Source of the DNA: Candidatus Saccharimonadota bacterium
GTDB lineage: Bacteria; Patescibacteriota; Gracilibacteria; BD1-5; UBA6164
Direction of reading: 5' to 3'
DNA: 32,000 nt
Assembly: GCA_963677765.1 (NCBI GenBank)
Contig: OY782392.1
Span: 90,001 to 122,000 of the forward strand
How positions within the stretch are numbered: the stretch's first letter is position 1; each line of letters starts with the position of its first letter. A program made the translations under genes and the position numbers. The notes below the pieces were generated by a model, which saw nothing but the letters and a program-made list of their open reading frames with translations, had not been told where the DNA came from and ran no database searches. Positions 1 through 32,000 of the stretch are shown here, in pieces.

Positions 1-1
1 G

Positions 2-577
2 CTAGAATCAATGATAGAAAACCCTATCCCTACTAGAGCAGAGGTTACAGATATATTTAATGCAGCAATGCAAAAAGCTGATTGTACAATGCTATCATGA
101 GAAACAGCAGCTTGAAAATACCCTATAGAAGCTGTAAAAACTATGTCTAGAGTCCTAGAATATACTGAAAAACAAATAACATATAAACATGATAAGTACT
201 TCATAAAAGACTTATGAGTTCATGAAGATAAAAAACAACTAATAAAAAATGCTGTTAATACTGCAGAAAATGTTTGAGCAAAAAATATATTAGTTTTTAC
301 TAATTCATGATTTATGGCAAAAACTATATCAGCATTTAGACCAAATTTACATGTATATTCTTTTACATTTAGTGATTTTCTAAGAAAAAAATTGACTATT
401 TTGTTTTGATTAAAAACTTTTTTAATTGAAAATAAATCAAATGAACAAAACTTAGAAGAAGCAATAAAAATACTAAAAGATAAATCATTAATGAAATCAT
501 GAGAAAAAATAGTTACTATATATGGTATAGAGAGAAAATGAAAAATAATACCAAGTATACAAGTAATTGAAATATAA
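2..577 (+). CDS. pyk: pyruvate kinase, C-terminal part (5' end outside window)
   Basis: Read with TGA=Gly, the frame starting at base 2 gives [48 protein letters not shown]... This contains the conserved PK motif MLSGETAxGxYP, and both Gly are TGA codons. The C-terminal domain runs to TAA at 575-577, and a hairpin terminator follows. Confidence 0.9.
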
Positions 578-604
578 AAAAACTAGGATTAAAACCTAGT
601 TTTT
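578..604. terminator. bidirectional intrinsic terminator between pyk and the convergent gene 596-1015
   Basis: Stem aaaaactagg (578-587) pairs with cctagttttt (595-604) around a 7-nt loop. A-run and T-run flanks let it work on both strands. Confidence 0.7.
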
Positions 605-1015
605 TATTTTTGAGAAAATTACTCTATTAATTTTTGGTAAGATATGATCAACTTTTATATCACCTGATATAACACAATTAACTTTTAGAGAAAAAAGTTT
701 ATTTATAATTTTTTCATTTATTATATATAAACTCTCTTGACCATAAGAAACTTTATTATTAATAAACAATATTACAACTACATTATTTACAAGTATATTT
801 TTATAAAAAGTTTCATCTTCTAAACTATCAGCATCAATAATAAAAATATTTAAAGAAGTTATATCTAGTTCCAATAAAGAATATTTTTCAATTTCTAGAT
901 AAGTAACAGCAATGCTAATATAATTTTTCATACTAACAAAGGCACTTTCTACATTTTTTTCAAAATCATGAGATACATTTAAATTATCCCCTATATATAG
1001 ATTTACTTTTAACAT
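596..1015 (-). CDS. hypothetical protein (139 aa)
   Basis: ATG at 1013-1015 (minus) to TAG at 596-598, with no TGA inside. Preceded by a canonical Shine-Dalgarno, aaaaagAGGAGGaattaATG (about 1016-1030). I recognised no family. Confidence 0.7.
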   Translation of the reverse strand: MLKVNLYIGDNLNVSHDFEKNVESAFVSMKNYISIAVTYLEIEKYSLLELDITSLNIFIIDADSLEDETFYKNILVNNVVVILFINNKVSYGQESLYIINEKIINKLFSLKVNCVISGDIKVDHILPKINRVIFSKIKN

Positions 1016-1084
1016 TAATTCCTCCTCTTTTTTTAAAAGTTTATTTATAGTATATATTTTATAAATATAGTCAAGAATAAAAAA

Positions 1085-1103
1085 ATAGACTAAATTAGTC
1101 TAT
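1085..1103. terminator. intrinsic terminator downstream of the RND gene
   Basis: atagacta (1085-1092) pairs with tagtctat (1096-1103), with an A-run upstream and a T-run downstream. The RND stop codon (1095-1097) lies inside the hairpin. Confidence 0.6.
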
Positions 1104-4100
1104 TTTTTTTATTCTATCAGTTTTTTTGTATAAAAACCAACTATAATATAATGATGGGACAACAAACAATGTCATTGTTGATCATGCTATCAATCAAAAT
1201 ACAATTGTAAATCATAATCAAGCCCAAAATTCATCTTGTAAAGCTAATGGTAAAACTCAAAAAACAGTTGTAAGAGTAGTAACTATTATTGGTTGTAATC
1301 TAGATTTTCAAGCAGAGATTACACTATGAATATTATCTATTCCTTTTTCTAAGTTTCTATTAATTCTATCTATTAATATAATAGCATCATTAACAACAAC
1401 TCATGTCATAGCAATAAATCAAATCATAAAAGTAATACTATATGGATTTCAAGTTAAAAATAATCAAATATTAACTCAAATAGTAGCAAGTATTACTGAA
1501 TATAATACTATTAATGGTTGTCTGAAACTATTAAATTGAAATACTAAAATAGAGAATATCAAAAACATTGATATAAACAATGACGCAATTGTAGATTGTA
1601 TTAAATCTGCATTTTCTTGATTTTCTCATCATTTTTCATAAGAAATTCATTCAGGGAAATTATAAGTAGAAGCATACTCATCAACCTTTGGTTGTATATC
1701 TGTAGATAATACTCAAGATTCTAAATCAGCTTCAACTGTAATTGTAATTTTTCAATCATCTCTAGTAATAGAAGTAATTGCCTTTGTAAATTCATAATCT
1801 GCAAAATCTCAAACTCTAAGTTTACCAGACCTAGTATTTATCATCAGATTTGATATTTCATCTGGACTTAATTCGTCTTCAAAGTCAGCAATTTTTAAAA
1901 CTATATCATTATCTTCATATTGAGACTTTATACTTCATGCTTTTAATCAATTTGTATATAAATATACTTCATTTACTATATCAGATGGAGTTAGTCATAA
2001 TTGAGATAATTTATTCTTATTAAATTTAAAAATGAACTGTCCTGGTGATTCACTACTTGTAGTAGTAATATTTTTTAGTCAATCAATAGTTCTAAATTCT
2101 TCTTTGAATATATTTGCTACATTTTTTAATTCATCTACTTTATTTGAATTATTTGCAACAAGTTTTACTCAAATAGCTTTTCAAGAAGGTGGTCAATTAG
2201 AAATAGTTTTTATAGAAACACTTAATCATTCTTCTTCTAGAGAAGATAAATTATTCATTATTTCTTCTTCTACTTCATAAACGTTTCTAAGTCATAATTC
2301 TTTTCTTTCATTTTTATTTAAAAGTTCAACATAAATATCTATTTTATTTCAAGAAACAGACATATTATAAACTTTTAATTCATCATGATAATTTATAGCA
2401 TTATCTATATCATCTAAATACTTAAGCAAACTATCTTCATTAGATCATTCCTTTGTTTCTATACTAGCTTGTATAACTGAATTATCAGTACTTGGAAATA
2501 AAATAAATCATATTTTTGGAGATAGAAAAACAAAAGTAATAACCATAAATACAATTGGAAAAACAATTACTACCCTTCTTATTGAGTTATTAATAACTAT
2601 TTTTTTCAACAAGTTATAATAAGACATAGAAAGTTTTCTAAGCGATTTATCTCTTAAAGATACTTTATCTACATTTTCAATTGTTTTTCATTGTCTTTCA
2701 TAAGATAAAAATTCTTTTTGTTTCTCTGAAAAACTAGCCTCTAATTTTTCATCAACATGATAAACTTTAGATTCACGAGCAAGCTTTATAAATAAGGCTG
2801 AACTTATAGTCAAAGAAAGAAAAAGAGCAGCAACCAAAGTAATAAAAACAGTTATTGGTATATAAGCCAAAAATTTTCACATAACACCAGGTAAAAACAT
2901 CAAAGGTAGAAATACAACCAGAGTTGTTAATGTTCATGAAATAAGAGGTGTTTTAAAATCTCTTATAGCTAATAAAACTGCCGTTTTTTTAGAATATCAC
3001 ATTTTCATTTTTTCACTAGCTCACTCTATAATTACTATAACTGTATCAATAGCAATTCAAAGAGTTAAAACAAGTGAAAAGTTAGTAAGAAAATTAAGAG
3101 TATATCACATATAGTTCAATACTATAAATGTAACAAAAAATGACAATGGGATAAGTATTGAAGCTATTATTGATTCTTTTAATCAAACAAATAATAATAT
3201 TGTAATAAAAACAAGAACTAATGTTTGTATAGCTGTAGTAGATAAATTTTTATAATCTTCTATAATAACTTCTGAAAGATCATTTATATAAAAAATATCT
3301 ATTCATTCTAAGTTATTATCACTTTCTAAAAACTTTTCTAACTCTTCCTTACTTATGTCTGAAACATCAAAAACATTTAGTCATTCATTTTTATTAAATA
3401 ATAATGAAGTGTAGTTTAATCCTGTTTTTCATTTAAATCATAATTTATTTATAGAATCATCTCAGTAGTCTTTTTCTATTGTAGATATATCTCTAAGTAA
3501 AACAGTAGAGTTTCAAGAGCTTTTTATTACAATATCTTTTAATTCTTCTATATTAGAAAGTTCTCAATCAAATCTAAAATCATAATTTAAATCTCATATA
3601 GTAAAATTACCAATAGGGGTATTTTTATTATAACTTCTTATTATATTTGATATATCAGCTATAGATAGAGATAATGTTTCTAATTTATCTTTATCTAATA
3701 AAACATTTATTTTATAATCATTAGCTCAAGAAATACCTCACATTCAACTCATATCAATAGATCATATATCTATTGATGATAATCATGGTATTTTTCATTC
3801 TAAACTACTTTTTATATATTGAGCTTTCTGTATAAGATCAAAATCTGAAAACTTAGAAGAATCTCAATATAGCAATACTTCAAACATCAAATCACTATTT
3901 GTAGACAATTCTGTAACAAGAGGATCTTCTGCATCTTCTGGTAAATCTACTTTATCTACTCAATCTTTTATATCAGTTAATACATCTCTTGTATTAGCTG
4001 TATTTTCAAGCTCAATTGTAATATTTGAAACTCAAACAGAAGAAACTGAATTAATACTTTTAATTCAATCTATGTCATCTATTTCTTTTTCAATCTTTTC

Positions 4101-4331
4101 AGTTATAAGTGAATCCATATCGTTTGGATTCACTCAAGGATATACAGTAGTAATTCATATAATTCAAAACTTTATATCAGGGCTAGATTCCTTAGGTATA
4201 GTTAACATAGAAAATAGACCTGCTACAAAAATCAAAAATATTACAAGATATGAAACTCTATATCTTTTTACCCAAAATCAAAAAAATCATTTTTCTAATT
4301 CTTTTTTTTCTCTTTCTATAGTACTATTCAT
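1095..4331 (-). CDS. RND-family efflux transporter permease (AcrB/HAE-like), 1078 aa
   Basis: The minus frame with TGA=Gly is open from ATG (4329-4331) to TAA (1095-1097).
- N-terminus: MNSTIEREKKELEKGFFGFWVKRYRVSYLVIFLIFVAGLFSMLTIPKESSPDIKFGIIGITTVYPGVNPNDMDSLITEKIE
- Internal: LVLTLGIAIDTVIVIIEGASEKM and LVVFLPLMFLPGVMGKFLAYIPITV
- C-terminus: GLIAGSTMTLFVVPSLYYSWFLYKK
Track ORF 2688-2870 is a fragment of this gene. Confidence 0.93.
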
Positions 4332-6183
4332 CTATTTTATTTTTAATTTTTAAATTAAATTTTTCTTCATCAAAATTATCTACATAATTTGTAATAATCA
4401 TTGTATTTTCATCTATCTCATCAAGAATTTCAACTTTTTCTCAATAAATATCTCAAACTTTTAAATCACTGGTATTAATTGATCAACTAGAATAGTAATT
4501 GATTGTTCAAATTCAAGAATTATTTATTTTTATAGAATCAAGAGATATTAATTTATTATCAAGTTGAATAGGAACCTCTATTTCAATAATATTTCAAATA
4601 TAATTAGCTTGATTAGGTAATTTTACCTTTGCAACATATTTAAGATTTTCATCAGCATTTTGAGCTATAGAATAAATACTTCAAGTATAAGTAGTATTAT
4701 CATTTTTGTAATAAACATCTTTTCATTCATAAACATATGATAATTCATCTTTTGTAAAAGAAATATTTATTTCATTATTTGTCTCACTAAGTATTTTAAA
4801 AGATGGAGTTCAAACTCATAATTCTTGTCATTCATCAATCATTATATCAGATATAATTCATGATATTGGTGAAGTTATATTTAACTTATCAGCTTGCTTA
4901 ATTGCTTGAGAGTATGCTATATTTGCATCTTCAACTCTTATTTCAGCATCTTTTATTGAAGTTTGAGAATCTTTTAATCATATTTCTAAATTTCTCAAAG
5001 TTAAATCTCTACTTTTTTTAGCTTCATCTAAAGTAGCCTCCATATTCTCTATTTCTAAATCTAAAGATCTAACATAAATTCATTTATCTTTTTCTAAATT
5101 TTCTATATTTTTTAGTAATGACTGCTCAGTATTTTGATAAGTTTCTAAGAAACTAGATATATTATTTTCCAATCAAATTAATTGAGTTTTATATCAATTA
5201 TAACTAGCTCTAAAACCAGAAACTTTTGCTTTGAATCAATCTATTTCTGCTTTTGATAAAGATCATGCACTTTCTATAGAATTAGATAATGTTTGATCAA
5301 ATTCTCTTAAAAATTCTATTATCAAATCATAAGAAATATTCAATTCATCTAAATATTTTTGATAATCCGTAGAATCGTTAAACTCAACTTCAAGATCATC
5401 AATATAATCTTTTTTTGATATCAAATTTCTTAATAGATTTTCTGTTTTTATTTTTTGTCAAGAATCTTTTGCTCATAAAAATGTTTCAAAAGAATCATTT
5501 TTATTTTTATTTCATGATGTAACTCAAAGTATTTCATCTGAAAAATAAGTTATATCATATAAGAAATCTCTTAAAACAATAAATTCTTTTTCTATATTTT
5601 TTTCAAAAGTAGTTAATGTTTCGTTATTAGATAATAAAAGATTATTATATTCTATTTCTAATTTTGCTAATGAATTTTCAATTTTTTCTAATTCCAAAGA
5701 AGAACTAGAATCTAGATTTTCTACATTTAAGTTTTTAAGGTTTCTTTCTAAATCAGATATTGATTTATCCAAATTTAACTTTGTTGTTTCAAAATTTATT
5801 TCTAATTTTTCATAGTTATTTTTTGCTACTTCTAATGAATTTTCAGCAGAAGCTAGAGCATTTTTTGATGATGCTACATTTAAATAATAATTAGCTATAT
5901 TATCGTCAAGTGTTGCTAATAATTGTCATTTAACAACATTATCTCATTGTTTAACAAAAATATTATTAACTCTTCAGTTAGCATTTGAATTAAGTGAAAT
6001 ATCTTGACTAGAAGATATTATTCATGTTTTTTTCAAAATAGCTTCATTAGATAATTCATTATATCATATAGTTTCAATAAGAAAATCTTTTTTTTCTTGT
6101 TTTTCTTCTACCAACTCATCAGTTCAACATGAATTAAGTAAAAGCATTCAAAATATAGTAAGTAAAATTATTTTTTTATTCAT
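4324..6183 (-). CDS. efflux periplasmic adaptor / membrane-fusion protein (HlyD-like) lipoprotein with very long coiled coil, 619 aa
   Basis: ATG at 6181-6183 (minus) to TAG at 4324-4326, overlapping the RND start by 8 nt (ATGAATAG). The N-terminus MNKKIILLTIFGMLLLNSCGTDE is a signal peptide with a lipobox-like Cys. The lipoyl-like motif is NGRVNNIFVKQGDNVVKGQLLATLDD. Several hundred residues of heptad-like sequence follow. Track ORF 5524-5772 is an in-frame fragment. Confidence 0.85.
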
Positions 6184-6583: not shown

Positions 6584-8308
6584 ATGAGCTGAAATACAAA
6601 GCATACTATTAGAGAAAAAACTCAAGAAAAAATCAAAATAATAGATGAGTTATTAATAGCATGACTTGAATGAATAAAAAAACTATGATCTGAATTCACA
6701 AAAGATAATTTTCATAAAATAAAAAATAAAATTTATTGAAAATATAAGCTTGCAAAACCTATAGCTAGTATAGAGTTAATAGAAAGATATAACGAATTAA
6801 TAGCTACATGAGAATTAGAGGAAGACTTATTATTTAAAAAGATTCTTAGAAAAAGATGAGTTAGAAGTCAATCATGAGTTACAGTTATTTCTCTTCTTAC
6901 AAAATTTTGGTGATGTCCTGGTGAATGTGTATATTGTCCTACTTTTGAATGACTACCAAAATCATATATACCAAATGAACCTGCAGTAATGAGGGCTGAA
7001 TTAAATAAATTTGATCCTATAAAGCAAATACATAATAGATTAAGAGCTTTAGAAGTTACTGGACATAAGATAGAAAAGAATGATGTTAGAATAATTTGAT
7101 GAACTTGGTCTGTATATCCTAAAAAATATCAAGAAGATTTTATTAAATGAATATATGATGCTTTTAATACTTATGATGAAATGAAAGAATTCATAGAAAG
7201 CACTGATTTGTCAACTGATAAATTTGCTAATTTCAAAATAAGAGAAACTTACAAAGCAAAAATAGCTCCAACTTTGGAAGAAGCAAAAAAAAGAAATGAA
7301 AATTCTAGATGTAGAGTAATTTGAGTAGCTATAGAAACAAGGCCTGATTGGATAACTCCAGACGAAATAAAAAGACTTAGATCATACTGAGTTACTAGAG
7401 TTGAGATTTGATATCAAACTACTTTTGATGAAATAAATGAATTAAATAAAAGATGACATTGAAATAAAGAAAGTATAGAAGCAACTAAAATGCTGAAAGA
7501 TGCTTGATTCAAAGTAGTTGCTCATATGATGCCAAATTTATTAGGTTCTACACCTGAAATGGATAAAAAAGCCTTAGCAAGAGTTTTTGATGATCAATCA
7601 TTTAGACCAGATGAATTAAAAATTTACCCTATGGTTGTTACTGATAAATCAGAATTAACAGATATATGGAAAAAATGATGATTCAAAGCCTATGATGATG
7701 AAACATTGATAAACCTTACTGCAGAGTTAGAAGCAATGGTTCCAGAGTATATAAGACTTAACAGAACATATAGAGACATACCAGCAAGTGAAATATTAGA
7801 AGGATCAAAATTAGCTAATCTAAGACAAATAGTCGAAGATAAGCTAAAAAATGAATGAATAAAAATGGTAGATATAAGACATAGAGAAATTAAATTTTGA
7901 AAAAATGATCCTAAAAAAGCTGTATTAAATGATTATAGTTATGAGGCATCTGATTGATATGAACATTTTTTAACTTTTGAAGATCCTGAAGATAGAACTA
8001 TTTTCTCTCTTCTTAGATTAAGACTTGCAAAATGAAATGAAGAAATAAACAAAGCACTACCTGAACTAGAATGAGCTGCATTGATTAGAGAAATACATAC
8101 ATTTGGTGATCAACTAAGTATTTGAGAAAAATGATCAACTTTTTGACAACATCTATGATTTTGAAAAAGATTAATAGCAAAATCTGAAGAACTAGCTATT
8201 GAAGCATGATTCAAAAAAATGGCTGTAATTGCATGAGTTTGAGTTAGAGCATATTATGAAAAAAGATGATATCATTTAGAATGAGAATATATGGTAAAAG
8301 ATTTATAA
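6584..8308 (+). CDS. elp3: Elp3-like radical SAM / GNAT acetyltransferase (tRNA wobble uridine modification enzyme homologue), 574 aa
   Basis: Read with TGA=Gly:
- Radical SAM Cys cluster: RKRGVRSQSGVTVISLLTKFWGCPGECVYCPTFEGLPKSYIPNEPAVMRAE
- RIIGGTWSVYP, CRVIGVAIETRPDWI, LRSYGVTRVEIGYQTTFDEINELNKRGHG, AGFKVVAHMMPNLLGSTPEMD, PEYIRLNRTYRDIPA
- C-terminal GNAT part: REIHTFG...GQHLGFGKRLIAKSEELAIEAGFKKMAVIAGVGVRAYYEKRGY
Stop TAA at 8306-8308. Confidence 0.9.
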
Positions 8309-8327: not shown

Positions 8328-8765
8328 ATGAAAAAAGTAGTTAGAACTTTCCTAAAAAATAATGAATGAAAATTTCTTTTTGTAAAACATAAATGAAAAG
8401 ATTATTGGTCTTTACCAGGCTGACATATAGAGTGAAATGAAGATATATACAAAGCTATAAAAAGAGAAATAAAAGAAGAATTAAATCTAAAAATAAAAAT
8501 TCTTTGAAACAAAATATGATTAGATATTGAAAATATAAAAGAACTAGCAACTCCTGTAGCAGTTTACAAAATAGAATTTGAAAATAATAAATGAAAAAAA
8601 CTAAAAAAGCTTGAATATATATTTCTTAGTGAGATAAAATCTTGAGATATAAAAATACAAGAAGAAGAAATTGATGAATACAAATTTTTTAGTGCTGATG
8701 AAGTATTAGAACTAGAAAATACTTTTTTACAAGTAAAAGAAATATTAAAAAAGATAGCTATATAA
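8328..8765 (+). CDS. NUDIX hydrolase (145 aa)
   Basis: The Nudix box GGHIEGNEDIYKAIKREIKEELNL matches GX5EX7REUXEEXGU, and three of its Gly are TGA. ATG at 8328, TAA at 8763-8765. Confidence 0.88.
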
Positions 8766-8844: not shown

Positions 8845-10467
8845 ATGATAAACAAAATATCAAATATAATTATATCAATAACTATATTAATAATAACAAT
8901 TATTCATTCCAATTTTTTAAACTATTTTTGAATAAATATTAATGTGTTAGTCGATTGAAATTTTCAATTCACAAAATCTATTTTAACTAATATTTTAGTA
9001 TGAATACTAGGAATAATATTTTTTATAAAAAATTATAATAAAAAAATTATAATTCCCTACTATGTATGGATTGTATTATTAATATTTTTTTATTCTATAA
9101 TAAGTAGTGATTTTTTTTATACTAATATATTTTGAAATAATATAAAATGACAATGAATATTATTTTTTATTAGTTTAGTTATATTATTTTTAATATTTAT
9201 AAATAAAAGTAAAAAAGATATAGAAAAAATACTAAAATATATAATAATTTTTTCAACTATTCCCTTTTTAATAGCTATAAAAGAATACTATTACCCTAGT
9301 TTTGATTATTGAAACTTATCAAATAGAGCATTATGAAGTTTTTGACACCCTAACTACTTAGCCCTATATATATTAGCATTAATTCCATTTATTTTAGAAA
9401 AAATAAAAGAAAATAATTTTTATATAATAATATTATTTTTATCAATTTTTACTTTATTATTAACAAAGAGCTTAATAGCTATATTAATTTTTTTTATATA
9501 TTTATTAATAATTTTAAATAAAAAAAATAGTATAAAAAATAAAAAAATAATTTATTTTTTATTTTTTATACTAATATTAGTTTCAATTTATATTTTTTAT
9601 AAATTTTGATTAATAACTAAACTAAATTCTTTTATTTCTAGATTTTATATATGGGAAACAAGTTTTAAAATAATTTTTTCAGATATAAAAAATATTATTT
9701 TTTGAGTTTGAAATGATTCTTTAATATATTTATTTGAAAAATACAAATCAGAGGAATTATATATATTTGAGAATATATGATATTCAGCTGATAGATCTCA
9801 CAATATTTTTATTGATATATTTTATAGTTATTGATTGTTATGATTATCTTTAATATGATTTTTTATTTATAAGTTTAAAAAAAGGTTCAAAAATAATAGT
9901 TACTATATATCAATACTATTAACAATAATATTCCTATTATTTAATATTGCTTGAGTTTCATTTTATTTAATATTTATATTAATTTTAGCTTATATAATAA
10001 ATAAAAAATATAGAAAAAATTATTATAAAATAACTAAAATATTTTTTATATTTTTATCAATTTTAATAATTTATAGTTCTATTAATTACTATATATATGA
10101 GAATAAAATTTACAATAACAAAGATATTAATGAAAAAAGTATATATAAAAAAATATACCTGGAAAATCTTGAAAATAAAATATTTGAAAATGAAAATAAT
10201 ATAGAAAAAATATGTGAAAATTTAATTGATTTTTCTCAAAGTATTGAAACATATTTTTATTGCTGAAATAGTATGTATTATTCAAATAGAGAAAAATCCA
10301 TATATTATTACAATCTATGACTAAATAAACTACCAGATATGTATAATAGTCAATCTGATTATTATAATAACATCTTGATAAAAAATATTTTTAATTATGA
10401 TAGATTTATATCTGAAAAATATTCAAATATTCAAGAGATATTAAATAGAGTAAATAATAACAAATAA
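8845..10467 (+). CDS. O-antigen ligase / Wzy_C-family polytopic membrane protein (540 aa)
   Basis: Multi-span hydrophobic protein. Wzy_C-like motifs are RALGSFGHPNYLALYILALIP and GYSADRSHNIFIDIFYSYGLLGL. It has a soluble, Asn/Tyr-rich C-terminal tail. ATG at 8845, TAA at 10465-10467. Confidence 0.7.
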
Positions 10468-10473: not shown

Positions 10474-11739
10474 ATGTTGTTCAATAAAAACAAAATAGAA
10501 TTATCAAAAGAAGAAATAATAAATGCAAAAGATTCGTTTTGAGATTTTATTAATGATACTCCTCTAGAAAAATCACAAAGATTGAGTAAAAAATATCAAG
10601 CAAATATATATTTAAAAAGAGAAGATTTACAAGAAGTAAGAAGCTATAAAATAAGATGAGCTTACAATCTAATAAATTCACTAACTCAAAAAGAAAAAGA
10701 TTCAGGTGTTGTTTGTGCTAGTGCATGAAATCATGCTCAATGAGTTGCTATATCATGCTCAAAACTAAAAATAAAAGGTACTATCTTCATGCCAATTACA
10801 ACTCCTGAACAAAAAGTATATAAAACAAAACAATTTTGATGAAAATATGTAGATGTAGTATTAGTATGAGATACTTTTGATCAAGCATTTAAAGCAAGTA
10901 AAGAATTCGAAAAAGAGAAAAAGGCAACTTTTGTTCATCCTTTTGATGATAGAAGAATTATATGTTGACAAGCAACAATATGACTTGAAATTTTTAACCA
11001 ATTACAAGGCATAGAAGCTGATTATATAATAAGTCCTATTTGATGATGATGAGTAATATCTTGATTAATAAATGCTAAAAATGCATTTAATAAAAAAACA
11101 AAAATAATATGAGTTGAGCCTGAATGAGCTCCATCAATGAAGAAATCATTAGAAAAATGAAAAAATACAACATTAGATAAACTAAATATATTTGTAGATG
11201 GTGCCTCAGTTGCTAGAGTTTGAGAGAATACTTTTAATATTGCAAAAAATGAAAAATTAAGAGTAATGACTTCACCAGAAGACAGAGTATGTTCTACTAT
11301 TCTTGAATATTTAAAAGAAGATTGATTAGTTGTGGAACCTGCTTGAGCTTTATCTACAGATATACTAAAAGACTTGAAAGAAGAAATAAAATGAAAAAAT
11401 ATTATCTTAATAATATCTTGATCTAACTTTGACTTTGAAAGACTACAAGAAGTAAAAGAAAGATCTATGAAATACGAATGATTAAAAAGATATTTCTTAG
11501 TTAGTTTCCCTCAAAGACCATGAGCACTAAAAGAATTTCTTAATTGTTTATGACCAAATGATGATATAGCAAGATTTGAATACCTTAAAAAATCAAATAA
11601 AAATAAAGCACCTGTTTTTATTTGAATAGAGACAGATAAAAAATCTAACTGGTCAAAAATAATAAAAAATATGACGGATTTATGATTTAAACATAGAGAT
11701 GTAACTGATGATGATTTATATTTTGATTTATTAGTTTAA
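10474..11739 (+). CDS. ilvA: threonine ammonia-lyase (threonine dehydratase), short form with one ACT-like regulatory domain, 421 aa
   Basis: YLKREDLQEVRSYKIRGAYN contains the PLP lysine motif. Also present are VVCASAGNHAQGVAISC and ISPIGGGGVISG (a tetra-Gly loop encoded as four TGA). The C-terminal part is RYFLVSFPQRPGALKEFL. TAA at 11737-11739. Confidence 0.9.
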
Positions 11740-16933: not shown

Positions 16934-16950
16934 TTTATAAAAAAGAAAAT

Positions 16951-21068: not shown

Positions 21069-21082
21069 AAGCTACTTTTTTT
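21054..21082. terminator. bidirectional terminator shared by convergent genes
   Basis: aaaaaagtagctt pairs with aagctactttttt. The stop codons of both flanking genes (21066-68 on plus, 21081-83 on minus) lie in or at the hairpin. Confidence 0.7.
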
Positions 21083-23399
21083 ATATTTTAATTTCTACAG
21101 TATCTCAAAGAGATGGTATAAGTATTTTTATTGATTTCCTATTTTTTAAAACTTCAGATTGTATTTTTTCTGAAAGTCATAAACGAGCTTCGCTTCAATG
21201 AGTTAATGAAATTTTTGCTCATCTATTAATTCTACTTTCATTTAGATATGTTAAGATTTCCTCTTCATCTATATGACCTGAAAATCATTTAATATCAAAA
21301 ATATTACACTTTACTTCATAAACATTTCAATCAATAGAAACTGGTTCTTTTGCCTTGATTTTTCATCATCTTGATTGAGGTGGAGTATATCAAACAAATA
21401 CTACAGTTGACATTCTATTTTCAAGATTTTTTTCCAAATGACTTAAAACAGCACCTCATTCACACATTCATGAAGAAGAAACAATAATCTCTTTTCTATT
21501 TTTTCTTTTTCATAAATATAATCCTTCTTGATCTTCTTTTGTATTAATATATTCAATTACTTCTCTTCAAAATAATTCAATTTGTACATCAGGATTCAAA
21601 AGATTATATTTCTTACCTAAATGATTTAAATAAATAGAAGTTATTTTTCTACTAAGAGGAGAATCTAATACAATATTTTGAAAGAAAATAGATCATTTAA
21701 CTTCATCAATATCTTTTTTTATTAAATCCATTGTTCTTTCTAATTCTTTTGCTTTGATTCAATTTTTATTTAATAGTGATTCATACTCTTTTTTAACTTC
21801 ATTTAATTCTCATTTTAATTCTTCTAATTCATGCTTTGCTCATAAATTATCTAGCATTCTTTCTAACAATGACATTAAAACTTCTTGAGTTCTTTGCATA
21901 GAAAATGTTGGTACAATAACTTTTGCTTTTGCATTTTCTATAGCATCAAAAAATTCAATCATAGATTTTTGTTTATTTGGATGTAATCTACCTGCATAAG
22001 TAGATTCCATTTGAATGTAATCTAATTTTAAATCAGAATATTCAGGCATTCAAGAAAGATTTGGATCTTTTATTCTACCTAAATCTCAACTAAACAATAA
22101 ATTAGTATGCTTTGTAGTTTTTCTTTTGAAACCTGGTATTGAAGCATCTTTTTTTGATAATATTTTTGCGACATCCTCAGTTATAACTGTTATAAGTGCT
22201 TGAACACTTCATTCTATATGTCATGCATCTAAAAATCTAAGCCTTATAGAATCAATTATTTTTCTATTTTTATCATTATTTGTTCTAAGCTTTAACTTTA
22301 TTTGTTTTTTTACTTTGTATAAAAAATCTAAATCATAATCAATTTGATATTTTGCTATCAAACAATCAGATATAGAATCAAAATCCTCAACTCAGTATTC
22401 TTCTAGTATAGCATTATATTTATCATATAATTCTTCAGATTTTTCTCTAGAAACTTCTTCAACAAAATGATAAGCTTCTTCTAATAAATGTTCTAAAGCA
22501 GAATTAGATTCTTCTATTTTTTGATTTTCATCAATAGCCTTCTTTGTATTTTCAATCATTTCATCTAGTTCTTCTCTTACTTGTGAATAAAAAGAAGTAT
22601 CAATATAAATATTTTCTCTAAATCAATTTTTAACTTTTTCCAATAATTCTGATAAAGTATTATTATTATAATTGTCTATATAATATGAATCATTTAATAT
22701 TTGTTCATCTCATATTTCCAAATATTTAACCAATGAAAAAGTTGCATCAATATCATACTCATCAAATAATAATTCAGGAACATCAATTAATTCTTTTTTG
22801 ATATCATCTAATTCATAGATTCAATATTCTTCTGTAACTGCCTTTGCTTCTTTGTATAGTTCATCTATACTTTTATCTCAATATTTTTTAAATAAATTTG
22901 CTTTTAGCTTTTTTCTATCTTCTTTTGATAATTTAGGTGACTTTAACTGAACATAAGAATCAATTATATATAAATAAGATTTAAACTTATTTAAAACTTT
23001 ATTATTTTTTGATTGAATTTCTTCTATTTTTGCTTTCATAATAGAAACATAATCCAATAACATTTCACGAGATTGTAATGCAGTTATTTTAGTCATATAA
23101 ATTGGTTTTTTATAACCATTTTTAACTAAATAAGGAACTCTACCACAATGATCTAAATGAGCATGAGTTAAAACCATCATATCTGTTTCTAATGCTTCCC
23201 TATCAATTTTTGAATTAGCATCTTTATCATTTCTTCATCATTGAAACATTCAATAATCAATTAAAACAGAAACATTTTTCATATCAGATTTAAATCTAGC
23301 AATAGTAGAACTACCTGTAAGAGTTTTAAAGTTTGGACTATCATTAAAACTACCTGTTTCTATTCATCATAAATATTTTATAGAAGCGCTTACTCACAT
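21081..23399 (-). CDS. metallo-beta-lactamase / beta-CASP family RNA-metabolising hydrolase with a large internal insertion, 772 aa
   Basis: ATG at 23397-23399 (minus) to TAA at 21081-21083. Family motifs are VLIDYGMFQGG, MVLTHAHLDHCGRVPYL (HxHxDH), FLDAGHIEGS, LLFSGDLG and VIVPTFSMQRTQEVL (beta-CASP). About 230 residues of charged helical sequence lie between HxHxDH and the AGH motif. Track ORFs 22878-23180 and 21840-22049 are in-frame fragments. Confidence 0.85.
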
Positions 23400-23528: not shown

Positions 23529-24404
23529 TTATTTTTTTGTTGGACTTGTTCTAGAAGTGTTTTTATCACTATTATCAAGTCATGTTTTCATTCTCTCTAA
23601 AGACTTAATATTTTTATTAATAGCTTGTTTTTCAGTATTTAATTTTTCGACCTCAATATTTTCATTTTCTACTTGAGATTCTAAATCTTTAATTTCCTCT
23701 TGCAATTTTGAAATATGATTTTCTCTATTAGATATATCTGAATCAATAACTTCTCATCTTTTTTCAAATTTTGAAATAGTATCTATAAGTATATCTTCCA
23801 TAGTTCAAATCGTATTAACATCACTAGAATCTTGTGTATTTACTAAAGAATTATCTTCTATAATATCTTCTTCTAATAATCAAGATGTTAAATCATCAGA
23901 CTCATTAACTTGTTTTGATTTTTCAGATGCATCAGATTCTTCATTATTTACTTCTAAATTATCTTCAGTATCTAAACTATCATCCAATAAACCATCTCAA
24001 AAAACTAAAGAATCTTCTTGATCCTCTTCTTTTTTATTATCAGATTCAACTAAGCCATTTTCTTTATCTTCTGTAATATTTTCTTCTATATCAAAAGATA
24101 AATCATTTCATAAGTGATCATCTTCTTTTATAATTAAGTCATCTTCCTTATTAGCATCTAACTTTACATCATCCATATCAAAAGACATTGTATCATCAGC
24201 TAATATAAAGTCAGAATTATCTGATTTTGATTCTTCTTTTTTTGAGTCTACAGATTCAACATCATCAAATGTAATAATACCATCAAGTGAATCATCAGAA
24301 TTAGATTCTTCTACTTTTGGATCAAAATTAAATTCATCTGAACTATCTGTATCATCTGACAAAATTAACAATTCTTCATCTTTGTTTTTGTCTTTAACTA
24401 CCAT
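23529..24404 (-). CDS. hypothetical highly acidic protein with C-terminal coiled coil (291 aa)
   Basis: Track ORF 24108-24404 extends through TGA codons to TAA at 23529-31. About 200 N-terminal residues are rich in Asp, Glu and Ser. The C-terminal part is heptad-like: ISKFEKRGEVIDSDISNRENHISKLQEEIKDLESQVENENIEVEKLNTEKQAINKNIKSLERMK. Confidence 0.7.
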
Positions 24405-24532: not shown

Positions 24533-24865
24533 ATGGACTTTTCAAAAGCATGAGAATTAATGAAACTTCAACAAGAAGCTATGAAAGTAAAAAAAGAATT
24601 AGAAAATACTTATATTGAATCAGAAGTTGATGGTTTAGTTATAACTGTTAATGGTGAAATGAAAGTTGAAAAATCTGAATTTGAAACTGCTAATTTAATA
24701 CCTGGTTTATCTAATGAACAAAAAGCTTTATTAGAAAAAGCTATAACAGATGCTGTTAACAAATGAATAAAAAAATCTCAAGAAGTTGCTGCTGAAAAAA
24801 TGCAATGAGTAATGGGACAAATGGGTATGGGTGATATGCTAGGAGGTTTACCTGGTATGAAATAA
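24533..24865 (+). CDS. ybaB: YbaB/EbfC-family nucleoid-associated DNA-binding protein (110 aa)
   Basis: MDFSKAGELMKLQQEAMKVKKELENTYIESEVDGLVITVNGEMKVEKSEFE...LLEKAITDAVNKGIKKSQEVAAEKMQGVMGQMG. Track ORF 24560-24766 is an internal fragment. Confidence 0.85.
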
Positions 24866-24967: not shown

Positions 24968-26458
24968 ATGAGTTTTAAAAAACAAAAAATTAAAAACAAA
25001 AGTATAAAAAATACCTCTAATTCAAACAAAAAAAATATTTTAAATATTATAGGTATTGTGTCAATATGATTAATTTTTATATTGGCACTATTTGTAGTTA
25101 AAAATATAAACCTTATAAAAATAAAAATAGATGAGCAATGAATGATTGCGTCAATTTCATGAACTACTGTAGAGGAAAAAACAAAAAATTCTCAAAATGA
25201 AAATAATGAAGAAGAATCTTGATCTTTGATATCAAATATTTTTTGAAAAGATGATAAAGAAGAAGTTATAAATATACTACTAACTTGAGTTTGATGAAGT
25301 AATCACGATTGAGGAACTCTAACTGACTCTATATTGTTAGCAAAAATAGATACAAAAGAAAAAGTAATAAGTTTACTATCAATACCTAGAGATCTTTATG
25401 TTTCATATAACTCTAATTTTCTTGCTGAATGAAGAATAAATTGAATATATTCATATTATTCCAATAAATGACAAAATATTGAGTATGGTATGTGAAAACT
25501 AAAATCTAAAGTACAAGAAATAACAGGAGAAAAAATAGATTATTATGTAAATATAGATTTTAATTGATTTATAGAATTAATAGATGCTATTTGATGAATA
25601 ACTTTAGAGATACCTGAAAATTTTGTTGACTATGAATATCCAGATGGAAATTGATGATATAGAACTTTAGTATTTAGAAAATGAACTTGGTTATTCTCAG
25701 GTGAAAATACTTTAAAATACGTTAGAAGTAGACATTCAACTAGTGATTTTGATAGATCTCTTAGGCAACAAAAAGTTATAATGGCTATAAAAGATAAATT
25801 ATCTTGAAGTTTTTTCTTAACATCTCCTTGAAAAATTAAAGAGCTTTATGATGTTTTTACATCAAATGTAAAAACAGATATAAGTTTAACAAAAGTAATA
25901 AGTCTTGCATATCTTATAAATTCAAAAGATGAGCTAAAAATATATTCTTCAAATATGAATGATTCTTGTTTTTATGATAGTTTAAACTGTAGTAAGTGAT
26001 GAATACTATATACTCCTATGAGAGAATTGTTTGATTGACAATCAGTTTTATTGATAAATGGAACTGAAAAATGAAGATTATCAAACTATGTACTATCAAA
26101 GAAGTATTCTGAAATTGTTTTTAAATATCCAAGAATACAAGAAGAAAATTATGAAATAAATATTTTTAATTCTACCTGAGAGCCATGACTAGCTTTGAAT
26201 CTGAGTTATAATATGAAAAGATTTGGTTTTTTAATGCCAGAATCAAATTTCTTATGAAATACAACAGAAGTCTATCCTAAATCAGTTATTTATTATAATA
26301 ATATAGATCCTAATTCTGATACTATAAAAGCAATAAAAGAATTTTATAAATGAGAATTAATAGAAGTAGAATATCCTAAATATTCTAAAAACGAAGCAAA
26401 AATCGAAGTTATAATATGACAGGATTATATAAGCAATAATCTAATATATAATTTTTAA
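24968..26458 (+). CDS. LytR-CpsA-Psr (LCP) family cell-envelope glycopolymer transferase with C-terminal LytR_C-like domain, 496 aa
   Basis: It has an N-terminal TM anchor. The LCP core is INILLTGVGGSNHDGGTLTDSILLAKIDTKEKVISLLSIPRDLYV...VNIDFNGFIELIDAIGGITLEIP...LKYVRSRHSTSDFDRSLRQQKV. TAA at 26456-26458. Confidence 0.88.
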
Positions 26459-26461: not shown

Positions 26462-29400
26462 ATGAATATCAATAAAAATATAAAAAGAAGAAAAATAAAA
26501 AGAAACTACACTAAAAAATCTTCTTATTCAAAAAAGAAAAGTTCAAGTTGAATACTTAGAATTGTTACATATATAATACTATTTTTTATAGTGTTATCAT
26601 TTTTAATGGCACTTGTTTTATATACTAAATATATAAAAGATTTACCTAGTGTATCGGAATTAGAAAATTATAATTTAGATGAATCCTCTACAATATATGA
26701 CAGAGAATGAAATGAATTATACAAGTTTTTTACTGAAAAAAGAACTTATGTAGAATTTGAAAAAATATCAAATAATATGGTAAATGCAATAGTAGCATGA
26801 GAAGATCAAAGATATTGGGAAAACCCATGAATAGATCTTATTTGATTAGCTAGAGCATGAATATATTTTGTAACTTGAAAAAGTTGATGAAAAGTTGAGT
26901 GAACTTCAACTCTAACTCAACAATTGATTAGAAATACAATAATCACAAATGAAAGAAGTATTGAAAGAAAGGTAAAAGAAATTTACTTAGCATATAAATT
27001 AACTTCTTGAGTTTCCAAAGAAAAAATATTAGAATTATATTTAAATAAAATATCTTTTTGACATAATTCTTATGGTATAGAAGAAGCATCAAAAACTTTT
27101 TTCAACAAAAATGCTATTGATTTAAATATATTAGAATCTTCTATTCTTGCATCTCTACCAAAATGACCTACATACTATTCTCCTTATAATCATCCTGATA
27201 GAACATTATGATATTTATATTTTTTCAATGATGAAAATCCTGAAGAAACAACTCAAATAATAAATATAACTGAAGTTACAGAAAACCAAGAAATGGTTGA
27301 TTTATTTAAAGATTCTATATCAAATTTAAAATGAAAAAAAATAAATAACTCTGATGAGATTCTTATATGTTGAGTTAATGACGATTTATTCAAACAAAAA
27401 TACAATATAGATAATGAATGATGTATGGTTATAAATTATCCATCTTTATTGAATTTTTTAAATAATTTAAAATTTGAATATAATGGTAATATTTTAGAAT
27501 ATCAAACTTGAAGAAAAGACTTTATTTTATGAAGAATGCTTGAAGATTGATATATAGATTTTGAAGAATATAAACAAGCTATAATTGACTCTATTTGATA
27601 TGTTTTCAATAAAAATAAAGAAGCTATAAATTCTCCACATTTTGTTTTTTATGTAAAAGAATATATAGAAAAAAAATATGGAAGTGATATTATATCTGTA
27701 GGTTGATTAGATATATATACAACTATAGATCCAGAATTACAAGCAAAAGCTGAAGAAATAGTTAAAAATCAAGTATCAGCTAATACAACAAAATTTAATG
27801 CTAAAAACTGAGCATTAATAAGTATAGATAACAAAACATGAGATATATTATCTATGGTATGATCTTCTGACTATTTTGATGAAGAAAATAAATGACAAGT
27901 TAATGTTGTAACTTCTACCCTACAACCTGGTTCATCATTTAAGCCTTTTGTATATGCATTAGCTATATATAATTCAAAAATATGAAATAAAACTCCTGTT
28001 TATGATGTAGAAACAACTTTTTCATGAAATTATACACCTAAAAACTTTGATGGTAAATTCATGTGAAAAATGAACTTAACTACAGCATTAAATAATTCGA
28101 GAAATATACCTGCTATAAAAATGGTACCTCTTGCTTGATGAGAAAAAAATATAATTGATTTTATGAAAAAACTTTGAGTAGAATCATTAAAAGACCATTG
28201 ACAATATGGTTTATCTCTATGATTAGGTACATGAGAAATGACAGCTCTAGAATTGGCTTGAGCATATAGTGTTTTTGCTAACCTATGAGAAAAAGTAGAA
28301 ATAAATCCTATATTAAAAATAGTAGATACTAAATGAAATATAATAGAAGAAAAAACTGAAACAAAAAAAGAAAAAGTAATTAGTGATGCTCAAAGTTATA
28401 TAATTAATGAGATGCTTAGTGATACTTCTGCTCGTCCTAGTTTTTGGAATAATTATTTATCTCTAAACTGAAGAAAAGTTGCAGCTAAAACAGGGACATC
28501 AAATAAACAATTTTATATAAATTGAAGAAATGAGATATATCCATGAAACTTATGGACAGCATGATATACTCCACAAATAACAACTGTAGCATGGGCATGA
28601 AACACAAACTGAGAAAGGTTATATAAAAATGGTAGTTGACTAGAAGCTGCATGATCTATTTGGAAACAATATATGGAATTTGCACATAAAGACCTAAAAG
28701 CAGAAACTTGGTCTAGACCAAGTAGTGTAAAAGAATTAAATATATCTGAAATAACATGATTACTTCCTAGCCCAGATAATGTATGATCAAATATATTAAC
28801 AAAATCATTGTTTGTTAATTCACCTACTGAATATGATAATAGCTTTCAAAAAGTAAAAATTGATATGCTTTGTAATTGAATTGTATGACCAAATACTCCA
28901 GATAGTGCTATAAAAGAAGCTACTTTAGTACAATTTAGATCTCTTGATCCAAGCAGATCAAACTGGGAAATACCTGTTCAAGAATGGGCTAGATCAGATG
29001 ATGCAATACAAAGATACTGAAATATTCCGAATCTAATAACAAAGATAAATCAAAATACTTGTGATAGATGAGATGTAAAATCAGATATAGTTCTTAAAAG
29101 TAATATTGTTGATGGTTGAAATTATTCTATATGAGAAAATTATATAGAAATTGCATACTCTTCAACAAATCCAATAATAAAATTAGAAGTATACCTTTGA
29201 AATGATTTAATTGAAAGTATTGATATAGAAAATAAAAATAGTTGATCATTTGCATGAAATATATTTTTCTGAGCAAAATATAAAAATAAATCAGCTCCTA
29301 TAACTATAGAAGCTATAGATAAATATTATTACTCTAATAAAGAAACAAAAAATATAAATATATTATCAAGAGATAATGAAGCTCCTATAATAAATATTGA

Positions 29401-29665
29401 AAATCCAATAGATAGTAGTATAAAATTATACAATACTGATTTTTTCAATTTTAGAGCTGAAATATTTGATGTTTCAAAAATAGAAACTATTATATATATA
29501 GACTGAGTTCAAAAATTCAATTTAAATGATACTAGAAGAATAAAACAAGAAATAAATTCTCTAAGAGATTTAGAGATTTGAAATCATGTTATAACAATAG
29601 AATCTGTTGATATATATTGAAATAAATCAGAAAAAAATATTGATTTAGAAGTGATACAAAAATAA
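26462..29665 (+). CDS. class A penicillin-binding protein (GT51 glycosyltransferase + transpeptidase) with extra insertion and C-terminal Ig-like repeats, 1067 aa
   Basis: GT51 motifs are [29 protein letters not shown] and [13 protein letters not shown]. Transpeptidase motifs are [11 protein letters not shown] (SxxK), NNSRN (SxN-like) and AAKTGTS (KTG). It starts 3 nt after the LCP stop. TAA at 29663-29665. Confidence 0.92.
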
Positions 29666-29796: not shown

Positions 29797-30408
29797 ATGG
29801 AAAACTTAGAATTCCCAATGATAGCAAAAATTGACAATCAAGCTCCTAGTTTTGACTTACCAGCTTATAATCCAAAAACTGATGATGAAGAAAAAATATC
29901 TTTAGAAAGCTTAAAAGGAAAATGGGTAGTTTTATTTTATTATCCAGCTGATTTTACTTTTGTTTGTCCTACTGAATTAAAAGACATGGCAGAAGAAGAA
30001 GCAAAATTTCAAGAATTAGGTGTTGAAATATTAGCAGCTTCTACTGATACTGTTTTTTCTCATAGAGCATGGGTAAAACATGAAAAACTTATGCAAGGTT
30101 TCCCTTATAAAATGCTTGCTGATCACAATACTGAAATAGCTGATTTATATAATATATTAGATGAAGAAACTGGTATTGCTGGTAGAGGTACATTTATAAT
30201 TGATCCAAAAGGTATAATTAGAGGTATAGAAGTTACTAGTGGACCTTTAGGAAGAAATAGTTCTGAATTAATAAGAAAAATTGAAGCATTACAATTTATG
30301 GAAGAAAATCCTGGTACTGCTTGTCCTGCAAAATGGGCAGTATGAGCAAAAACTTTGAAACCATCAATAAAAATTGCTTGAGAAGTAGGTGAAGAATTAG
30401 AAAAATAA
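29797..30408 (+). CDS. typical 2-Cys peroxiredoxin (AhpC/Tsa family), 203 aa
   Basis: WVVLFYYPADFTFVCPTE holds the peroxidatic Cys and GTACPAKW the resolving Cys. The track ORF ends at TGA 30343-45, but the frame continues as AVGAKTLKPSIKIAGEVGEELEK to TAA at 30406-08. Confidence 0.92.
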
Positions 30409-30413
30409 AAAAT

Positions 30414-30447
30414 AAAAAAATAGAGATTTTAAAATCTCTATTTTTTT
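30414..30447. terminator. bidirectional terminator shared by prx and the convergent ytxH-like gene
   Basis: Perfect palindrome aaaaaaatagagatttt / aaaatctctattttttt. The minus-strand stop codon (30438-40) lies inside it. Confidence 0.8.
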
Positions 30448-30926
30448 ATGTTCTTAATTTCATTTTTTAAATCATTAAATGAAGTTAATAATTTTTCTTT
30501 AAGTTCTTCAACTTTAGCTGGAGCAATTCATTTTAATTCTTCTATTTCTGATAATTTTTCTTTATATAATTCTTCTAATTTTTCAGAAGTTGTATAAATA
30601 TAAGATTTACCTTTAACTCTTAATTCTTCAATCAAAATATTTCATTTTTCCTTGTAAGAATCAATTATTTTTATTATTTCTTCTTTGTGTTCATTAAAAA
30701 TAGCTTTATTTTTTTCACTAAGTAATTCTTTTTTTAAGTCATCAATCATATTAGCATGAGTATCTACAAAGTTATCCATTATAACCTTAAAACTTCATTT
30801 ACCAGACTCTTTAGCTGATTCTAATTCTGTTTTTAATTCTTCAGGTTTTTTCTTTGAGTAAATAGAAGCTACTATTCCCCCAGCTATATATCAAGCTGCT
30901 AATAAAAAAATATTTTTTTTAGACAT
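30438..30926 (-). CDS. YtxH-like membrane-anchored helical protein (162 aa)
   Basis: MSKKNIFLLAAGYIAGGIVASIYSKKKPEELKTELESAKESGK... has an N-terminal Gly-rich TM helix, then a Lys/Glu-rich helical region, as in YtxH-family general stress proteins. Confidence 0.6.
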
Positions 30927-31187
30927 ATCTATATAATTAAAAATTAACTAAAAAAGCATACTTAAAAAAGTCTAGTAGTTTTTAACATAAAATAAAACCT
31001 TCAACTTTGTATAAAGCTTTTTTATGATATAATTAAAATAAGATACAAATAATAATTTGTATATGCTTATTAAAAGCTATATTTGATATTTTGTATTATT
31101 TTTTTATACAAAAAAGCAAAAATAGTCACTAATATTATACAAAATATTATAATATTTGCAAAAATTAATTATTAACAAAAAAGATAA

Positions 31188-32000
31188 ATGTCATATAACA
31201 ATTTTTCTGAATGATATAGAAAAGTATTAATAAATGCAGAAAATAATGCAAAAGAAGTTTGAATTAAAGAATTAACTATAGAAGATATATTTATAGAAAT
31301 TGTAAAAAATTCTACTTGATGAATAAAAGAGATATTTAATCTATATTGAATTAATGAAAAACTAACTATAGAAATAATAAACAAAGGTATATTCAATGAA
31401 ACAATAGAAAAAAGAAAATGAGTATATTCTTGAATGAATAATAGATTAAAAAATGCAATACTATGAAGTGTCAAAATAGCTGCATCATTTGCAAAAGACA
31501 AAGCATCTATAGAGGATTTTTTACTATCTATTATAGCAAATGATTCTTGGATAAATAGCTTTTTAGATTATATCGGAATAACTCCTAGTGATGTTGAAAA
31601 AAATCTAAGGGAGTTAAATAAACTATGAGCAATTGATTGAGTTAAACCTTGATTCCCTATAGAAGATGATTCTGAAGATATAGAGTTAGAATGAGAAGAA
31701 TCTATAAATAAATTATTATGAGCTTTGACTCAAAATTTATTATGAGAAAATCAAGCTACTCCATTTGATATGAACAAAGAACAAAAATGATCAAAAAATA
31801 GTGATTCTACTACTCCAGCATTAGATTTCTTTTCTACTGATTTAACAAAAGAAGCTAGAGAATGAAAAATAGATAAAATAATATGAAGAGATATAGAAGT
31901 AGAAAGACTTATAGCAATATTAAATAGAAAAACAAAAAATAATCCTGTTTTAGTATGAGAACCTTGAGTTGGTAAAACAGCTATAGCTGAGTGATTAGCA
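31188..32000 (+). CDS. ClpC/ClpB-type AAA+ chaperone ATPase, N-terminal part (3' end outside window)
   Basis: A Clp_N-like double repeat is followed by [63 protein letters not shown]. The Walker A motif is at 31953-31979, and two of its three Gly are TGA. Confidence 0.9.

Follow-up and report, generated by a model that had tools for sequence, protein, structure and literature searches.

Evidence for UGA as the majority glycine codon in a 32,000-base chromosomal stretch of a Gracilibacteria genome

The DNA considered here, positions 90,001 to 122,000 of contig OY782392.1 (the window; 32,000 bases, 22.8% GC), is poor in open reading frames (ORFs) under the usual bacterial code and densely filled with genes once the codon TGA is read as an amino acid. 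A listing of ORFs over the whole window under translation table 11 returns 19 of at least 60 amino acids, six of at least 100, and none longer than 182, which is exactly the number of short ORFs that a first-pass annotation of this DNA had reported. When only TAA and TAG are allowed to terminate, there are 27 non-overlapping ORFs, one fewer than the 28 genes previously counted, and the longest three run to 1078 (the maximum that had been given), 1067, and 1054 amino acids, or 1079, 1068, and 1055 codons if the stop codon is counted. Coding density under each code, a comparison that had been proposed as a check, was measured as the greedy cover of the DNA by non-overlapping ORFs; it rises from 18.2% under table 11 to 93.4% with TAA and TAG as the only stops. 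Reading through TAA or TAG in place of TGA yields no long ORFs, in agreement with the claim that long frames appear only with TGA read through. At the composition of the window, a TAA or TAG is expected once per 12.5 codons, and the longest TAA/TAG-free ORF in 20 shuffled sequences reaches only 148 codons; ignoring a single stop therefore does not by chance produce frames this long.

The 27 genes comprise 10,004 codons, among which TGA occurs in frame 452 times (4.5% of all codons, in nearly every gene) while TAA and TAG never occur internally. Twenty-six genes end inside the window, 23 of them at TAA and three at TAG, which bears out the earlier statement that these two codons alone terminate. 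Because all 26 complete genes end this way, no gene needs TGA as a stop. Matches to family profiles extend to within about 15 residues of the TAA/TAG ends, including sequence past the last TGA.

To avoid presupposing an amino acid, TGA was replaced by X in the profile searches. The longest ORF, on the minus strand at 1095..4331, encodes a 1078-residue RND efflux permease of the AcrB family, with a full-length match to Pfam ACR_tran (E 3.9e-120) through 60 TGA codons, residues 17-1063 aligning to profile positions 2-1018 of 1021. The isoleucyl-tRNA synthetase (IleRS; 17274..20438, plus strand, 1054 aa), a type 2, eukaryote-like enzyme with 35 TGA, 32 GGN, and 22 TGG codons, is likewise matched at full length: it is hit by Pfam tRNA-synt_1, Anticodon_1, and DUF5915, its four domains reach the last residue, and PDB entry 8wnd matches with E 3.5e-243. 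Both domains of a class A penicillin-binding protein (PBP; 26462..29665, plus strand, 1067 aa), the GT51 transglycosylase (Pfam Transgly) and the transpeptidase (Pfam Transpeptidase), are matched through 61 TGA codons. Masked matches were also obtained for ten further plus-strand genes: a pyruvate kinase whose 5' end is cut by the window (2..577, C-terminal part, 8 TGA; Pfam PK and PK_C), a Nudix hydrolase (8328..8765, 145 aa, 8 TGA; Pfam NUDIX), the threonine dehydratase IlvA (10474..11739, 421 aa, 27 TGA; Pfam PALP), a RidA/L-PSP family protein (11782..12213, 143 aa, 7 TGA and no GGN codon; Pfam Ribonuc_L-PSP), a HAD-family hydrolase (12289..12882, 197 aa, 10 TGA; Pfam HAD_2), a MazG-like/PRA-PH family pyrophosphohydrolase (15997..16359, 120 aa, 5 TGA; Pfam PRA-PH, E 4.5e-15), a CYTH-domain protein (16364..16933, 189 aa, 9 TGA; Pfam CYTH, E 8.7e-9), a YbaB/EbfC nucleoid-associated protein (24533..24865, 110 aa, 3 TGA versus 9 GGN; Pfam YbaB_DNA_bd), a LytR-CpsA-Psr family protein (24968..26458, 496 aa, 30 TGA; Pfam LytR_cpsA_psr, E 2.3e-27), and the peroxiredoxin AhpC/Prx (29797..30408, 203 aa, 2 TGA versus 12 GGN; Pfam AhpC-TSA, E 2.5e-39). 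In the ORF at 6584..8308 (plus strand, 574 aa, 36 TGA), the masked search matched the radical-SAM domains; its name, Elp3, a radical SAM/GNAT enzyme of tRNA wobble-uridine(34) modification, came from the glycine translation. TGA is thus a sense codon in these genes, as had been proposed.

The opposing view, that the standard code applies, that TGA codons are true stops, and that the window is non-coding or consists of pseudogenes or assembly errors, would agree with the finding of only 19 short ORFs under table 11. It is contradicted by the presence of hundreds of in-frame TGA codons alongside a complete absence of in-frame TAA and TAG, by profile matches at full length in more than 15 families, by the fall of TGA sites on conserved glycines, and by the recurrence of the same pattern in 25 independent relatives (both described below). 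We regard it as so improbable as to be negligible.

The first-pass annotation had pointed to TGA at glycine positions within motifs of unrelated families, and every motif it quoted was found where it had been placed (lower-case g, TGA). These are the IleRS sequence HYgH, written CAC TAC TGA CAT with its TGA at 17463-65; the Nudix box PGgHIEg at 8415-8435; HAD motif I, FDLDgT, at 12307-12324; the pyruvate kinase motif MLSGETAAGKYP at 89-124 (plus strand), with two TGA read as glycine; the IlvA motif SAgNHAQg at 10720-10743 and, at 11041-11052 of the same plus-strand gene, a GGGG loop written as four consecutive TGA; the GT51 motif of the class A PBP at 26801-26836 (plus strand), whose tryptophan is written TGG; and a Clp Walker A sequence, VgEPgVGKT, written GTA TGA GAA CCT TGA GTT GGT AAA ACA at 31953-31979 (plus strand). 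The last lies in a ClpC/ClpB-type AAA+ chaperone (31188..32000, plus strand, 20 TGA; PDB ClpC 3pxg, E 5.6e-19), of which the N-terminal 271 residues precede the cut made by the window at the 3' end.

The amino acid encoded by TGA was read from alignments of masked window proteins of five unrelated families to solved proteins of other organisms: IleRS (8wnd), IlvA (8y1j, plus E. coli 1tdj), ClpC of B. subtilis (3pxg), PBP1a (4oon), and MexK (9xwg). Of 149 aligned TGA codons, 78 stand opposite glycine, 16 opposite alanine, and none opposite tryptophan or cysteine. Against a glycine background of 7.1% in the solved references, the binomial probability of this result is 8e-49; the annotation had named TGA columns without glycine enrichment as an observation that would count against it, and strong enrichment is what was found. 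As internal controls in the same alignments, 31 of 47 GGN codons stand opposite glycine and 24 of 30 TGG codons opposite tryptophan. The families agree individually. In the AcrB-family permease aligned to MexK, 21 TGA fall opposite glycine and none opposite tryptophan; the corresponding figures for the class A PBP against 4oon are 18 and none. For IlvA, glycine is found at 21 of 27 TGA positions in 8y1j and at 21 of the 26 inside the alignment in 1tdj, and for the Clp fragment at four of the six in the stretch aligned to 3pxg.

A larger sample was obtained for IleRS, searched against 1.84 billion cluster representatives, with 137 of the best 150 matches retained as having normal tryptophan content and so probably using the standard code. 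The query was the public copy of the protein (P0001), translated with tryptophan at TGA, a choice that biases against glycine. Even so, the 35 TGA columns average 52% glycine, with tryptophan below 1% on average and no higher than 4% in any column, compared with 65% glycine for the 32 GGN columns and 89% tryptophan for the 22 TGG columns. Conservation reaches 90% or more in six TGA columns, every one of them glycine, and all 12 columns that are at least 90% tryptophan are written TGG in the window. When codons are assigned individually from columns at least 70% conserved, TGA is glycine in 12 of 12 and TGG is tryptophan in 19 of 19; the other testable codons are all standard, the lone CTG column being uninformative. 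The general claim that TGG continues to serve conserved tryptophans therefore stands. The example given for it, from the GT51 motif, does not, since PBP1a 4oon has alanine at that position.

Translation of TGA as glycine, as X, or as tryptophan also changes how well the window proteins fit their families. In all six Pfam families compared, the ranking is glycine over X over tryptophan, with bit scores in that order of 251.2, 186.9, and 151.6 for PALP (IlvA), 135.1, 118.0, and 108.4 for Ribonuc_L-PSP (RidA), 72.1, 56.3, and 50.7 for PK_C (pyruvate kinase), and 62.0, 51.8, and 47.0 for NUDIX. For the Clp fragment, AAA families are matched by the glycine translation only. Glycine makes up 1.2% of residues from GGN alone and 5.75% with TGA added. 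Tryptophan makes up 0.52% from TGG and would reach 5.0% if TGA were tryptophan, about five times the usual level.

Evidence of a different kind comes from codon exchange among relatives. Scanning GTDB species, each represented by one genome, gave 80 IleRS loci, of which 39 were analysed. Fourteen of these, from Treponema, Clostridia, Bacteroidota, and others, form a standard-code group with no TGA, 46-64 GGN, and 24-27 TGG. The remaining 25, labelled Gracilibacteria, 'Peribacteria', Patescibacteria, or Absconditabacteria, form a recoded group with 4-49 TGA, 59-85 TGA plus GGN, and 19-24 TGG. At columns where the window has TGA, the recoded relatives carry TGA in 36% of cells, GGN in 41.5%, and TGG in 0%; where the window has GGN, 31% of their cells are TGA; and where it has TGG, they carry TGG in 92.5% and TGA in 0%. 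From this pattern of exchange, TGA and GGN behave as synonyms while TGA and TGG do not. Relatives translated under table 4 in the protein collection present the same picture at one remove, with a mixture of W and G at TGA columns and W only at TGG columns.

These results bear directly on the Mycoplasma-type code, table 4, in which a tRNA-Trp(UCA) decodes UGA as tryptophan, and which the first-pass annotation had considered excluded. By coding density, tables 4 and 25 are indistinguishable, and the public copies of the window's IleRS and Elp3 do carry W at TGA. However, tryptophan is absent opposite TGA in the solved homologs and scarce in every IleRS column, TGA-TGG exchange is never seen in the 25 recoded relatives, the tryptophan translation gives the lowest Pfam scores, and the tryptophan content implied is implausible, leaving glycine at the low level supplied by GGN alone. 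We agree with the exclusion, and consider tryptophan at UGA very improbable.

UGA might instead encode selenocysteine or cysteine, or be read according to context, as sense inside genes and as a stop at their ends. UGA is the selenocysteine codon elsewhere, and proteomics of a BD1-5 bacterium has returned single peptides in which the residue at UGA was Trp, Ala, Asp, or Lys (PMC4032931), such that low-level misreading may occur. TGA is too frequent in the window for selenocysteine, however; no cysteine stands opposite any of the 149 aligned TGA codons, and no match to an Rfam family of the selenocysteine insertion sequence (SECIS) type was found in the window. A context-dependent stop is opposed by the TAA and TAG endings of all 26 complete genes, close to which the profile matches run. 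Readings of this kind appear to us very unlikely, at about the same level as tryptophan.

The window, then, is in our judgment almost certainly chromosomal DNA that uses translation table 25, from what its best matches indicate is a UGA-recoded member of the Gracilibacteria/BD1-5 group (GTDB class JAEDAM01). As judged from sequence, UGA serves as a normal glycine codon, and as the majority one, UGG is tryptophan, only UAA and UAG terminate, and the other testable codons are standard. Glycine is specified 575 times in the window, by TGA 452 times (79%) and by GGN 123 times, a ratio of 3.7 to 1 that illustrates how far takeover by a former stop codon can go. The TGA share of glycine codons is 14% in AhpC, 25% in YbaB, and 52% in IleRS, and lies between 74% and 97% in all remaining genes that have ten or more glycine codons. 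Genes low in TGA are also the most GC-rich, AhpC, at 30.6% GC, exceeding every other gene in the window. The uneven share could be due to selection on highly expressed genes or to recent acquisition. Among recoded relatives of similar GC (22-26%), the IleRS gene contains anywhere from 4 to 49 TGA codons (compare loci L003-L006 with L011, L017, L022, and L025); the extent to which TGA has displaced GGN thus differs about ten-fold from one lineage to another, and base composition is not its sole determinant.

Changes to the code beyond table 25 were also weighed. For Absconditabacteria and some Gracilibacteria, for example, a reassignment of CGA or CGG to tryptophan has been proposed, and CGG as tryptophan in some Gracilibacteria is a prediction of Shulgina and Eddy (PMC8629427). 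Arginine in the 10,004 codons is written AGA 251 times, AGG 14 times, CGT five times, and CGA, CGG, or CGC never; that absence is the unassigned or very rare state that should precede or follow a change of this kind. With zero occurrences, nothing in the window would be translated differently, and all testable IleRS codons are standard. An additional reassignment in this genome seems quite unlikely, if clearly less so than the other alternatives to table 25 considered above.

The mechanism by which table 25 would operate here is drawn from the literature on the lineage. UGA would be read by a dedicated tRNA-Gly(UCA) bearing the usual glycine identity elements of the acceptor stem, for which G1:C72, C2:G71, G3:C70, and U73 serve as criteria (PMC8629427). 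Release factor 2 (RF2) would have been lost, abolishing termination at UGA and leaving UAA and UAG to release factor 1 (RF1). Strong AT mutational pressure, to which the GC content of 22.8% points, may have driven the conversion of GGN to TGA, with GGA to TGA requiring a single G-to-T change.

Several observations weigh against this interpretation or against parts of it. About half of the IleRS TGA columns are not glycine in distant homologs; this we attribute to ordinary sequence divergence, because GGN columns behave similarly. No tRNA genes or Rfam matches occur in the window, and no UCA tRNA occurs in 30 loci of recoded relatives, where only tRNA-Ser(GGA), tRNA-Lys(CTT), and one tmRNA were found. 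No release factor gene lies within the window, loss of RF2 being something that only a complete genome can reveal. Finally, the placement in the lineage is drawn from best matches and record names, and NCBI labels for the Gracilibacteria group are inconsistent (gTranslate preprint 10.64898/2026.05.24.727570).

Elp3 is rare in bacteria. In the window, the glycine translation of this gene scores 513.5 bits against NCBIfam TIGR01211, for which the cutoff is 350, over profile positions 13-522 of 522, and its best solved match is the Elp3 of Dehalococcoides, 5l7j (5l7j/6ia8, E 1e-95). The protein is 68-94% identical across Gracilibacteria relatives, a conservation about equal to that of IleRS. Keeping UGA (glycine) apart from UGG (tryptophan) requires wobble control at U34, a noted difficulty of this code (PMC8629427), and because the split demands such control, Elp3 is an obvious candidate for a component of code 25. 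The window Elp3 may, by this proposal, act on tRNA-Gly(UCA), modifying its wobble uridine and so helping to keep the two codons distinct. Its basis is the presence of the gene and its strong conservation, and a literature search found no link between Elp3 and the Gracilibacteria code or CPR (candidate phyla radiation) bacteria. We offer it as a speculative and rather unlikely suggestion. If true, genetic code 25 would have a U34 modification pathway of the eukaryotic and archaeal type among its components.

Downstream of the partial pyruvate kinase, a minus-strand ORF of 139 residues (596..1015) has no Pfam or NCBIfam match and a codon-model score of 0.23; it is the sole sizeable ORF without TGA, has 2.2% glycine, is of uncertain coding status, and may not be a real gene. 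The AcrB-family permease is paired with a periplasmic adaptor (membrane fusion protein) of the RND pump, encoded on the minus strand at 4324..6183 with 29 TGA, which matches NCBIfam TIGR01730 (RND_mfp) with E 1.7e-24 and 86.3 bits, slightly below the 94.9-bit cutoff. The adaptor is long, at 619 residues, and the pair overlap by eight bases (4324-4331); no gene for the outer-membrane channel of the pump lies within the window. Between the Nudix hydrolase and IlvA, a polytopic membrane protein of 540 residues (8845..10467, plus strand, 19 TGA) weakly resembles O-antigen ligases (Pfam Wzy_C, E 2e-4, below cutoff).

Hypothetical proteins are encoded on the plus strand at 12926..14311 (461 aa, 22 TGA), in a frame that is open only with TGA read through and that matches no family; at 14392..14637 (81 aa, 1 TGA); at 14713..15510 (265 aa, 7 TGA), with an N-terminal hydrophobic segment and a product that table 11 cuts to 142 residues; at 15730..15993 (87 aa, 1 TGA); at 16879..17214, a small protein whose ORF contains 5 TGA and whose probable start is the ATG at 16951, past the stop of the preceding CYTH gene; and at 20493..21068 (191 aa, 5 TGA). 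A hypothetical coiled-coil protein of 162 residues with 4 TGA lies on the minus strand at 30438..30926. With respect to IleRS, the best solved matches are cytoplasmic fungal enzymes (8wnd, 7d5c) and bacterial IleRS2 (8c8v), type 1 enzymes such as 1ffy matching much more weakly, and in some relatives a C-terminal histidine-phosphatase domain (PF00300) is fused to it.

A minus-strand gene at 21081..23399 (772 aa, 32 TGA) encodes a metallo-beta-lactamase/beta-CASP ribonuclease-like protein (Pfam Lactamase_B, Beta-Casp, and RMMBL) whose two halves are parted by a predicted coiled-coil insertion of about 400 residues; its best NCBIfam matches, to archaeal aCPSF1 and to a Cas14-type beta-CASP family, are both far under their cutoffs. 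Next to it, an acidic, low-complexity protein of 291 residues is encoded on the minus strand at 23529..24404 (6 TGA). The plus-strand ORF at 23524-24426 was rejected as a shadow ORF, with a codon-model score of 0.24 on the plus strand versus 0.61 for the minus-strand gene. The codon model likewise marked a minus-strand ORF at 31172-31567 as the shadow of the gene on the opposite strand.

The best matches to IleRS (69-97% identity) and to Elp3 (68-94% identity) are named Candidatus Gracilibacteria wherever the source gives a name, and include the closed genomes HOT-871 and 28_42_T64; among the 39 aligned GTDB species representatives, the nearest IleRS is 83% identical. UGA as glycine in Gracilibacteria (BD1-5) and Absconditabacteria (SR1) goes back to Campbell 2013 and Rinke 2013, as cited in PMC8629427, and tRNA-UCA-Gly has been identified (PMC8629427). 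Proteomics of a BD1-5 enrichment by Hanke 2014 found 97 peptides unique to the glycine translation versus three for tryptophan (PMC4032931), and prfB went undetected in all the BD1-5 genomes available to another study (PMC6851277). The recoding is, as the first-pass annotation also stated, not new: it is biology known since 2013, seen here in a genome that is already public.

Public copies of the window's proteins show what happens when the code is missed. The public collection contains, from NCBI/ENA, the window's IleRS, identical except for W at all 35 TGA positions. Its copy of Elp3 (P0271) is 94% identical, with 6% of mismatches that equal the 36 TGA codons in number, and is evidently the same genome's protein translated with tryptophan at TGA. 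A widely used coding-density heuristic of the CheckM type chooses only between tables 11 and 4 (10.64898/2026.05.24.727570), and the tryptophan translations fit such a choice. The W/G mixture is found as well in many relatives' entries from non-NCBI sources, which are mistranslated at conserved glycines. No new biological principle emerges, and the practical value of the analysis lies in correcting how each gene here is annotated and in flagging tryptophan-mistranslated copies in public protein collections. The default bacterial code reduces a stretch that is 93% coding to 18% and loses or truncates all its genes, while falling back from table 11 to table 4 places tryptophan at 1-8% of the residues of each protein. 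Residues mistranslated in this way are often catalytic glycines, as in the Walker A motif, the HIGH motif, and the pyridoxal phosphate (PLP)-binding GGGG loop, and the resulting proteins score lower against family profiles (152 versus 251 bits for PALP). Such entries would probably mislead structure prediction and alignments.

Compared with other lineages that use table 25, the window shows no difference in kind. Like them, it has UGA at conserved glycines, writes tryptophan as UGG, ends genes at UAA and UAG, is very low in GC, and relies heavily on UGA for glycine, and UGA usage in the window, at 3.7 to 1 over GGN, is at the high end of the range of its relatives (4 to 49 UGA per IleRS gene). 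Code-25 phages and prophages of Gracilibacteria and Absconditabacteria (PMC10746230) share the dense in-frame TGA and the near absence of annotation under code 11. They differ in content, the window encoding cellular housekeeping functions (IleRS, pyruvate kinase, ClpC, PBP1, IlvA, and the RND pump); no portal, terminase, or integrase gene is among its family matches, and a phage origin is ruled out by the housekeeping content together with the occurrence of identical proteins on a contig of 1,048,296 bases. The table 4 lineages (Mycoplasmatales/Entomoplasmatales and several insect endosymbionts) share the capture of UGA from stop to sense, the small AT-rich genome, the effect on ORF calling, and a reported loss of RF2 (gTranslate preprint 10.64898/2026.05.24.727570). 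The amino acid differs, however, being tryptophan there and glycine here, and with it the decoding problem: under table 4, a single tRNA(UCA) reads UGA and UGG harmlessly, whereas code 25 must keep the two apart (PMC8629427).

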